A stretch of DNA of 64,000 bases, taken from NCBI GenBank assembly GCA_965243395.1, contig CBDEUS010000002.1, positions 704,001-768,000 of the forward strand. The letters run 5' to 3'. The notes beneath the pieces were generated by a model that made no database searches, was not told the DNA's origin, and was given only the letters and a program-made list of their open reading frames with translations. The position numbers and the translations under genes were made by a program. How positions within the stretch are numbered: the first letter of the stretch is position 1; every line of letters starts with the position of its first letter. Below are positions 35,534-36,428 of this stretch, in pieces. This DNA comes from Gammaproteobacteria bacterium (GTDB lineage Bacteria > Pseudomonadota > Gammaproteobacteria > UBA4575).

Positions 35534-35758
35534 TTAAGAAACATAATTATATTGGTATGAACGAAGAGTAGCTTCTCCAAAATATACTTTTGTAAATATA
35601 ATTTGGGGAAGCCACTCTTTTTTCATTTTTACCTTTTCTAAACGTCGTTTAGACTTGTTGCTTTTACGATGCACACCACCCTTTCTAAGCAGTGGATGAT
35701 TATGTAAAAGATTTCTTTGCCGCGTAAATTTAACTGCCAGTTTAGTCTTGTCAGGCAT
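35534..35758 (-). CDS. Small basic protein, putative ArfA-like alternative ribosome-rescue factor
   Basis: 74 aa from ATG at 35758 (AAGGAG RBS). RNLLHNHPLLRKGGVHRKSNKSKRR core, with a more hydrophobic tail encoded by a long hairpin. Confidence 0.6.
   Translation of the reverse strand: MPDKTKLAVKFTRQRNLLHNHPLLRKGGVHRKSNKSKRRLEKVKMKKEWLPQIIFTKVYFGEATLRSYQYNYVS
35557..35626 (-). other. Long intragenic RNA hairpin (candidate RNase III site)
   Basis: Minus strand aagagtggcttccccaaattata, 10-nt loop, tatattttggagaagctactctt: about 23 bp with 2 mismatches, extendable by atgaa/ttcat. Confidence 0.8.
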
Positions 35759-35793
35759 TACTATTCTCCTTATTTGTTTCAATTAACTAATGT

Positions 35794-36024
35794 TCAAGCG
35801 GCTTCTTTTAACAGTGTGCCATCCTGAATCGCTTGGCGAATATAATCCATAAAATACAGCGAATTTTTTTCAGCAACTAGCACCTCGTCACGCATTGTGT
35901 TTAGAGGTACTGGAAAGCTGTACATCATTTCACTATAAGGAACAGTCACAGCATAATACGCTATCCCATTTTGATAACGTATGAACTTAGCTTTGTTGTT
36001 AATGCTTATATCATTTGTATTCAT
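35794..36024 (-). CDS. Small hypothetical protein, paralog B (FPVP motif, ends -EAA)
   Basis: KFIRYQNGIAYY...FPVPL...YFMDYIR. Aligns by eye with 36049..36276. Confidence 0.8.
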   Translation of the reverse strand: MNTNDISINNKAKFIRYQNGIAYYAVTVPYSEMMYSFPVPLNTMRDEVLVAEKNSLYFMDYIRQAIQDGTLLKEAA

Positions 36025-36048: not shown

Positions 36049-36276
36049 TTAAGCGGCTTCAGTTTTATCCATTTTCTCATCCAGTTTTTGGGCATGAGCT
36101 TTGATATATGGATAAAATCGATTTACACGGTCTTCATTTAGAAATACCGACTGACCTGAACCTTTAATAGGTACAGGAAACTTAAAACCACTCTCTGTGC
36201 GGTACCATAGTTTTCCTGATAGGAAAAACATGAAGCGCACGCTTTCATTGTTTTCCAATATTTGATCAAGCTTCAT
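36049..36276 (-). CDS. Small hypothetical protein, paralog A (FPVP motif, ends -EAA)
   Basis: RFMFFLSGKLWY...GFKFPVPI...VFLNED...FYPYIK. AAGGAG RBS. Confidence 0.85.
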   Translation of the reverse strand: MKLDQILENNESVRFMFFLSGKLWYRTESGFKFPVPIKGSGQSVFLNEDRVNRFYPYIKAHAQKLDEKMDKTEAA

Positions 36277-36344: not shown

Positions 36345-36428
36345 AAAAAAAACCCCGGTGCTCACGCTGCCGGGGTTTCTAGTGTTTCCGGAAGGTGAGC
36401 TGCACCTTCCGATATATCTGGAAGGTAC
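36345..36428 (-). promoter_or_regulatory. Transcription attenuator (alternative hairpins plus intrinsic terminator) in the operon leader
   Basis: Segment 2 (36402-36411) can pair with segment 1 (36420-36428) or segment 3 (36388-36397). Terminator aaaccccgg...ccgggg plus U8 at 36345-36378 lies upstream of the first structural gene. Confidence 0.75.

Follow-up and report, generated by a model that had tools for sequence, protein, structure and literature searches.

A small basic protein of Gammaproteobacteria with an arfA-like intragenic hairpin: a tentative candidate for a non-stop-gated ribosome-rescue factor linked to RNA repair

What does a 74-codon gene do that carries a long RNA hairpin within its own reading frame? 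The gene in question lies at positions 35534-35758, on the minus strand, of a stretch of 64,000 nucleotides from a member of the Gammaproteobacteria (GCA_965243395.1, contig CBDEUS010000002.1, positions 704,001 to 768,000; this whole stretch is the window hereafter), and a preliminary description had called its product ArfA-like. Escherichia coli ArfA is a protein of about 72 amino acids (aa) with a KGKGS motif, made from an mRNA that is cut in a 3' hairpin; arfA and brfA share a known switch, in which the protein is made from a non-stop message. Whether tmRNA is essential depends on back-up ribosome rescue, and efforts are under way to exploit rescue as a target of antibiotics. We found that the gene belongs to an unannotated family with the gene anatomy of arfA, and we tentatively propose, by analogy and at slightly less than an even chance, that it encodes a ribosome-rescue factor which is analogous to ArfA, is gated by a non-stop message and has a link to RNA repair.

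The open reading frame (ORF), as listed and translated, runs from an ATG at 35758-35756 to a TAA at 35536-35534; the listing also holds a longer, TTG-started version of the same frame (35534..35782, minus strand, 82 aa). A Shine-Dalgarno-like AAGGAG, read from the sequence, is located at 35766-35771 on the same strand, 7 nucleotides (nt) ahead of the ATG at 35758. The 74-aa product, small and strongly basic, reads MPDKTKLAVKFTRQRNLLHNHPLLRKGGVHRKSNKSKRRLEKVKMKKEW and then LPQIIFTKVYFGEATLRSYQYNYVS, and comprises the motif N16-x4-H21PLLRKGGVHRKSNKSKRR and the tail WLPQIIFTKVYF; all strings of the frame quoted in the preliminary description, that is, the N-x4 motif stretch and the tail, are present in this translation. 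Family alignments delimit a conserved core at codons R15-W49 (35612..35716, minus strand), with the consensus RNxLHxHPLLxKGGVHxKSxKAKRR...KKEW. Because R15-W49 is conserved across genomes of very different base composition, this is a real gene under selection, with the appearance of a translated small coding sequence.

The hairpin consists of an inverted repeat with arms at 35557-35589 and 35594-35626, each 33 nt long and 82% complementary, around a 4-nt loop. Codon 45 starts, in minus-strand reading, with base 35626; the preliminary description had thus correctly placed an in-frame stem at 35557-35626 beginning near that codon, and had underestimated its length at ~23 bp. The 5' arm (35594..35626) covers codons 45-55, its base encoding the last conserved residues, KKEW; the loop (35590..35593) falls in codons 56-57; and the 3' arm (35557..35589) covers codons 57-68 and encodes the non-conserved tail, the sequence of which is dictated here by complementarity to the 5' arm. 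The last seven codons and the stop (35534..35556) lie 3' of the hairpin and would be missing from a message cut or ended at it. Folding of 281 nt gave a minimum free energy of -66.8 kcal/mol (z = -4.22), and none of 200 shuffled sequences folded as well. The local hairpin has a free energy of -36.1 kcal/mol with 32 pairs, a value reached by none of 40 control windows from the same 5 kb (mean -8.8, minimum -24.9). A search of Rfam at E ≤ 1 returned only sub-threshold, microRNA-precursor-like matches (best 29.8 bits, gathering threshold 60) and no known RNA family. A scan for consensus promoters and terminators made no terminator-like call at the hairpin and found four promoter-like sites, with 4.4 expected.

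To which family the protein belongs is not told by existing annotation, as a Pfam and NCBIfam scan of the 74-aa protein gave no match at E ≤ 10. A word-indexed protein search recovered 35 relatives of 53-94 aa, all unnamed or labelled 'hypothetical protein', and an exhaustive search of representatives at 50% identity recovered 121 cluster representatives at E ≤ 0.001, two of which were dropped as long repeat proteins (P0116, 731 aa; P0139, 491 aa). With near-duplicates from the word-indexed search thinned, the family alignment (A2) held 139 rows. Single scans of these members against Pfam gave no family with matches in more than two members; of the 34 Pfam families matched, 25 were listed, and ArfA (PF03889) and KGG were not among these. 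A one-genome-per-species scan identified 43 loci, all of them in metagenome-assembled genomes; 41 were labelled Gammaproteobacteria or a subgroup thereof, one Pseudomonadota and one 'uncultured Mycobacterium sp.'. The carrier labels include Thiotrichales, Chromatiales, Ca. Thiodiazotropha, Sedimenticolaceae, Methylococcales, Kangiellaceae, Competibacteraceae, Thioalkalispiraceae, Thiogranum and Nevskiales. In the assembly labelled as Mycobacterium (CAXMUG010000002.1), the gene order is that of Thiotrichales-like loci, and this contig is probably mis-binned or mislabelled. In an even sample of the class to which the window belongs, 400 genomes were scored: the family profile had matches in 36 (32 of the 348 of high quality; 31 of 321 genera) and PF03889 in five.

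Conservation gives out where the hairpin starts. Among the 50 loci with a hidden Markov model score of at least 58 bits, hereafter the closer loci, R15, P22, K26, H30, K35 and R38 are present in all and W49 in 46; past W49, identity is 20-40% at first and noise thereafter, and the tails vary in length. AlphaFold2, run with the 139-row alignment (mean predicted local distance difference test 84, predicted template modelling score 0.42), modelled residues 1-33 as coil without regular structure and residues 34-73 as a single basic helix. Since this coil/helix boundary falls within the core, the conserved part would consist of an extended HPLL-KGG-H segment and the start of the helix, and the model suggests a functional part of about residues 15-49, with the extended segment RNLLHNHPLLRKGGVH leading into the beginning of a Lys/Arg-rich helix.

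In the closer loci the hairpin persists where its letters change. We sought hairpins from a fixed protein anchor, the R38 codon, and scored 40 control windows per locus. In 48 of the 50 closer loci, 52-63 nt separate the R38 codon from the loop midpoint downstream of it; the distance is exactly 56.0 for the majority of the AT-rich lineage and 53.5 for the majority of the Thiodiazotropha-like one. The hairpin beat all 40 controls of its own locus in 28 loci, and no more than two controls reached it in 37. Its arm sequences are wholly different between lineages, with pairing retained (alignment A4). RNAalifold derived 20 consensus pairs, all of which showed compensatory changes; 89.6% of 996 cells were paired, compared with 42.7-54.9% when the partners were slid by 1-3 columns, double-change cells numbered 220 against 67.7 ± 11.2 in shuffles, and for all five measures none of 500 shuffles reached the observed value. 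Two cautions apply: the alignment that was tested had also served to derive the structure, and kinship of the sequences makes the shuffle test too favourable. The slid controls, a fairer comparison, fall clearly below the observed value. Covariation among homologues, which the preliminary description had named as a check on its proposal, is therefore present, with compensatory changes at 20 of 20 pairs and a fixed offset in 48 of 50 loci.

How closely this arrangement resembles that of a known rescue gene was assessed with a positive control, for which 25 genuine arfA loci (PF03889, aligned as A3) underwent the same hairpin procedure; the ArfA profile was built from genome loci, and near-identical Pasteurellaceae ArfA matches were left unused. 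The control hairpins ranged from -19 to -54 kcal/mol and lay 3' of the KGKG codons, with starts at distances of 1-95 nt; the stop codon lay before the hairpin in two loci, in its 5' arm in four, in the loop in four, in the 3' arm in seven and beyond it in eight. In the 50 closer loci of the family, the stop lay beyond the hairpin in 35 (the window gene included), in the loop in eight, in the 3' arm in five and in a shifted 5' arm in one, with no hairpin scored in the remaining one and no stop upstream of the hairpin. Because the same procedure yields like hairpins and stops in both, the family gene has the anatomy of arfA, down to the scatter in the position of the stop. Both are genes of about 70 codons for small basic proteins of Gammaproteobacteria, with a conserved N-terminal part, a tail that is non-conserved and rather hydrophobic, and a strong hairpin within the ORF that starts right after the conserved part, the stop lying in or past it.

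By analogy with arfA, the message would be cut in the stem, with RNase III as the candidate nuclease, or would end at the hairpin. An active protein of ~47-68 residues would then be made from a message without stop codon, and would accumulate only when tmRNA-SmpB is saturated or absent. The protein would act on stalled ribosomes, most likely by inserting its basic helix into the vacant mRNA channel, and would bring in a class-I release factor, RF1 or RF2. The preliminary description had proposed an analogous or divergent rescue factor with a truncated, ~50-aa active form. Its analogous version is the best-fitting one, given the arfA/brfA-type architecture and the likeness to the arfA controls; kinship with ArfA found no support, as detailed below.

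Several observations weigh against a rescue factor of this type. Thirteen of the 50 closer loci show no hairpin above the level of the local controls; two of these, L032 and L062, showed no or only a weak hairpin in that run, an earlier run having given -39.1 kcal/mol for L032. Among the 23 more distant loci (below 58 bits), no hairpin at this offset exceeds every control in stability, and some of these loci have strong stem-loops farther downstream; the switch is therefore not universal in the family, and is a feature of the subfamily of the window gene and not of every member. A T-rich tract (at least five T in 8 nt) follows the hairpin in only nine of the 50 closer loci, and the window hairpin, with four T in the next 8 nt, falls below this criterion; termination is consequently not what happens in general, and it is more likely that the long stem would be cleaved. 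The family profile matched no chain of the Protein Data Bank (PDB) at E ≤ 10, in a search that works, as the ArfA profile retrieved six ArfA chain sequences at ~1e-23 to 1e-24. Profile comparison by hhalign against ArfA (A3) gave a probability of 0.12% (E 0.46) for A2 and of 0.20% for alignment A1, and comparison of the family with three KGG proteins gave 0.8%, with only the three columns KGG aligned. The gene in the window is not beside rtcB: the rtcB of this genome lies at C2:136920-138032, ~600 kb off and among other neighbours. ArfB occurs in 16 of 36 carriers of the family and in 190 of 400 genomes of the class sample, that is, without anticorrelation. Finally, none of the five ArfA-bearing genomes carries the family, a number too small to mean anything.

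The rival that survives best concerns RtcB. Clustering of neighbour ORFs over 73 family loci (the window, 43 loci of the species scan and 29 of the class sample) separated two contexts, a lineage of 20 loci with a conserved 75-aa ORF upstream and other lineages with RtcB directly upstream on the same strand. This upstream protein matches PF01139 (E 3.8e-129 in locus L046). By tblastn, RtcB is upstream on the same strand in 24 of the 73 loci: in 18 it lies 13-92 nt away, measured from where the RtcB similarity ends up to the conserved core, in one 309 nt and in three ~1.1 kb away, and in two only a C-terminal RtcB remnant precedes the gene; one further locus has no upstream sequence, owing to a contig edge, and 48 show no RtcB in the 1-3 kb available. 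The linked RtcBs are 55-85% identical to the query RtcB (from L046; self 100%), and the linkage is therefore old. RtcB was found in 27 of 36 carriers compared with 127 of 380 genomes of the class sample; the class tallies of ArfB and RtcB include genomes flagged unpublished (G039, G141, G296, G308). RtcB matches in the class sample fall into two classes, of ~1.30 kb at E ~1e-165 to 1e-175 and of ~1.11 kb at ~1e-119 to 1e-134. The rtcB linked to the small gene is of the shorter type, as is the rtcB of this genome, and ~17 of ~40 genomes with the short type carry the family, according to a manual count in which related genomes are not independent.

The protein could accordingly be an accessory factor of RtcB that targets the ligase to damaged rRNA or tRNA, or acts as its cofactor, and recruits no release factor; the hairpin may then still gate synthesis, or simply end the rtcB operon. 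Besides the 18 loci with rtcB directly upstream, the four more with it within ~1.2 kb, the two with remnants, the age of the linkage and the enrichment of RtcB among carriers, it speaks for such a factor that the distant, rtcB-linked subfamily keeps the core without a hairpin at the same offset. The window and its 19 related loci, however, retain both gene and hairpin without rtcB nearby; nine of 36 carriers lack RtcB at E ≤ 1e-30, some of these assemblies being incomplete; the sequence gives no pointer to ligase chemistry; and a plain cofactor role would leave the arfA-like anatomy unexplained. We consider an RtcB accessory factor unlikely, yet worth keeping in view beside the proposed rescue factor.

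Further observations concern the rtcB neighbourhoods. A conserved orphan protein (a 387-aa ORF in L051) is encoded just upstream of rtcB in 14 loci (L032-L053, L061, L080, L081); it has no Pfam or NCBIfam match and, with that single query, was not found in this genome. In L087 an RtcB remnant of 52 residues abuts the small gene. In L089 (G276:C105:16363-19503), a distant family member is preceded on the same strand by arfB (NF006718, 192.7 bits) at a distance of 211 nt, and a C-terminal RtcB remnant of 40 codons separates the two. Distant loci (L068-L089) have the core type RNPVARSPLLRKGGAHxKS, and in several of them an acidic tail of the type DEWYEDE replaces KKEW and the hairpin; several members of this subfamily adjoin rtcB. 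Around the rtcB of this genome (region C2:135420-139532), ORFs of 99 and 260 aa without NCBIfam match follow 3' on the same strand, and a 55-aa ORF with a Cys-x-Cys-Gly-Ser-Gly motif lies 5'.

A second rival would make this an ordinary small gene with an overlapping 3' stem-loop that ends or stabilises the transcript, the full-length protein having some other role in nucleic-acid binding. Stem-loops are common at gene ends, truncation of the mRNA is itself inferred only, and where the stop lies inside the hairpin, in loop or arms (14 of 50 closer loci), it would be retained in a message that ends past the stem. In the other direction, the stop is past the hairpin in 35 of the 50 loci, by up to 171 nt; the tail is unconserved in length and sequence while the 5' arm lies within the conserved coding part; T-tracts are as scarce as stated above; and the same anatomy is diagnostic of arfA. 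An ordinary gene of this kind therefore appears quite improbable.

Sequence comparison speaks against descent of the family from ArfA itself. PF03889 has no match at E ≤ 10 in the 74-aa protein or anywhere in the genome, and the KGKGS motif is missing, the protein reading RKGGVHRKSNKSKRR and the family consensus being KGGVHxKSxKAKRR. The sole stretch aligned by hhalign spans six columns, HPLLR against DPLFR, a lead and no evidence of kinship; ArfA F25, located in that segment, contacts RF2 according to the portions consulted of PMC6299226. A very divergent true ArfA homologue with an altered RF2-binding segment (LLHxHPLLR in place of ALLHDPLFR) is most improbable, as the shared size, charge, gene anatomy and taxonomic class, and the position of that one aligned stretch over the RF2-contacting segment, stand against hhalign probabilities of 0.12% (E 0.46) and 0.2%, the absence of PF03889 from the 25 listed of 34 Pfam families matched by the 139 members, the missing KGKGS motif and a basic part predicted as a long helix. 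'ArfA-like' in the sense of kinship thus finds no support, and by sequence comparison the family is not a detectable relative of either ArfA or KGG/ArfT. It differs from ArfA in having KGGVH in place of KGKGS, in a basic region predicted as one long helix, in its frequent linkage to rtcB and in its occurrence in 36 of 400 sampled genomes of the class compared with five.

Comparison with the other rescue factors yields partial likenesses. The Pfam KGG model (PF10685), which we take to be the charged-helix repeat family that includes ArfT, had no match in this genome and, of 121 sampled genomes, matched two, both non-carriers of the family. The published account of ArfT, as far as the consulted excerpts go, is of a short basic protein in which lysines flank a K-G-G motif (KKGGSTNKK, PMC6299226), which the present family resembles, and of a gene without hairpin control (PMC6299226), from which it differs. 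Burroughs and Aravind placed ArfT in a wide family of charged-helix repeat proteins, according to the sections consulted of PMC6514570, and a charged helix is proposed to enter the mRNA channel (PMC6299226, PMC6514570), a further likeness. The family is set apart from ArfT by comparison with KGG proteins and with the published description of ArfT, not with the ArfT sequence. BrfA of Bacillus subtilis, which depends on RF2, is likewise a small protein with an intragenic structure before the stop and synthesis gated by trans-translation, as described in the excerpts consulted of PMC6881298. It belongs to another phylum, and the family profile matched no PDB chain, the presence of BrfA in that copy of the PDB being unconfirmed.

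The linkage to rtcB, in turn, has a precedent in PrfH-RtcB2, where a rescue factor is paired with RtcB (PMC9304027, PMC9223846, PMC12829566 and PMC6514570, in the parts consulted). As in that system, a candidate rescue gene is genetically paired with an RNA ligase RtcB, with relatives of the family just downstream of rtcB in 18 of 73 loci. PrfH, however, is a release-factor homologue with its own catalytic domain, whereas the 74-residue protein has neither GGQ nor an RF-1 domain; the window gene is moreover not beside rtcB, which is found in the neighbourhood of 24 of the 73 family loci.

These comparisons lead to a broader form of the rescue proposal, which we regard as possible and, on balance, doubtful: an independently evolved, non-stop-gated rescue family, present in more gammaproteobacterial families than ArfA and with an ancestral RtcB partner, would be a small-protein counterpart of PrfH-RtcB2, coupling the release of ribosomes stalled on broken RNA to the mending of that RNA and serving as the sole back-up to tmRNA in genomes like the present one, in which ArfA and ArfB were both sought and not found. 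The literature consulted, in excerpts, names few back-up factors (ArfA, ArfB, ArfT, BrfA and PrfH), and many bacteria, this genome among them, show none of these. If the proposal holds, the arfA-type design of a non-stop message would have been invented repeatedly, here in a further unrelated family; part of the rescue gap in environmental and symbiotic Gammaproteobacteria would be filled; and the linkage to rtcB would tie the rescue of stalled ribosomes to RNA repair.

The genome of the window provides the parts that such a factor would need. It is 2.58 Mb long in two contigs and, by computed estimate, 100% complete, and it contains the genes for tmRNA and SmpB, encodes RNase III, and has exactly two genes with an RF-1 domain, for RF1 (360 aa) and RF2 (a 344-aa open frame after the usual frameshift site). 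ArfB had no match over the cut-off in this genome; with neither ArfA nor ArfB found, the gene would be the only candidate back-up to tmRNA found here. A complex prediction of RF2 (344 aa, A5) with residues 1-55 of the protein (A2), run without controls, scored 0.00 and counts neither way.

Alanine is frequent at the C-terminus of the full-length ORFs: 26 of the 139 family members end in A and nine in AA, at a family alanine frequency of 6.5%, and the ArfA ORFs (A3) do likewise, with 13 of 25 ending in A and seven in AA. This feature, shared by many ORFs of both families, could represent an ssrA-like C-terminal degron on read-through products.

Additional searches for the identity of the protein were made. 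The ESM Atlas returned only 'hypothetical protein' clusters (0.86-0.88), and a lead to DUF7230, which made up 13% of one cluster at a score of 0.81, was rejected, as PF23876 was present in none of five carrier genomes at E ≤ 1. With the family alignment, no fused or longer form (208-2000 aa) turned up, which is weak evidence. Among public sequencing runs, four of one study contain this DNA, no RNA run is listed for it, and three possible RNA runs matched next to none of its sequence words. Full-text searches revealed no title or abstract describing this family; the supplementary lists of PMC6514570 and related surveys might mention it.

In the window, the neighbours of the gene encode TraB/PrgY/GumN, SH3-like, DUF4332 and BON proteins and four ORFs without family, none of them informative. 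Directly upstream on the minus strand are two small ORFs, of 76 aa (35794-36024) and 75 aa (36049-36276), without Pfam or NCBIfam match; PADLOC matched neither these nor the 74-aa protein. The 75-aa ORF is the one conserved upstream in the window and in 19 related AT-rich loci, and the two ORFs and the small gene may accordingly form an operon. Finally, a terminator-like stem-loop of 11 pairs, six of them G-C, lies at 36350-36378 on the plus strand, between convergent small ORFs.

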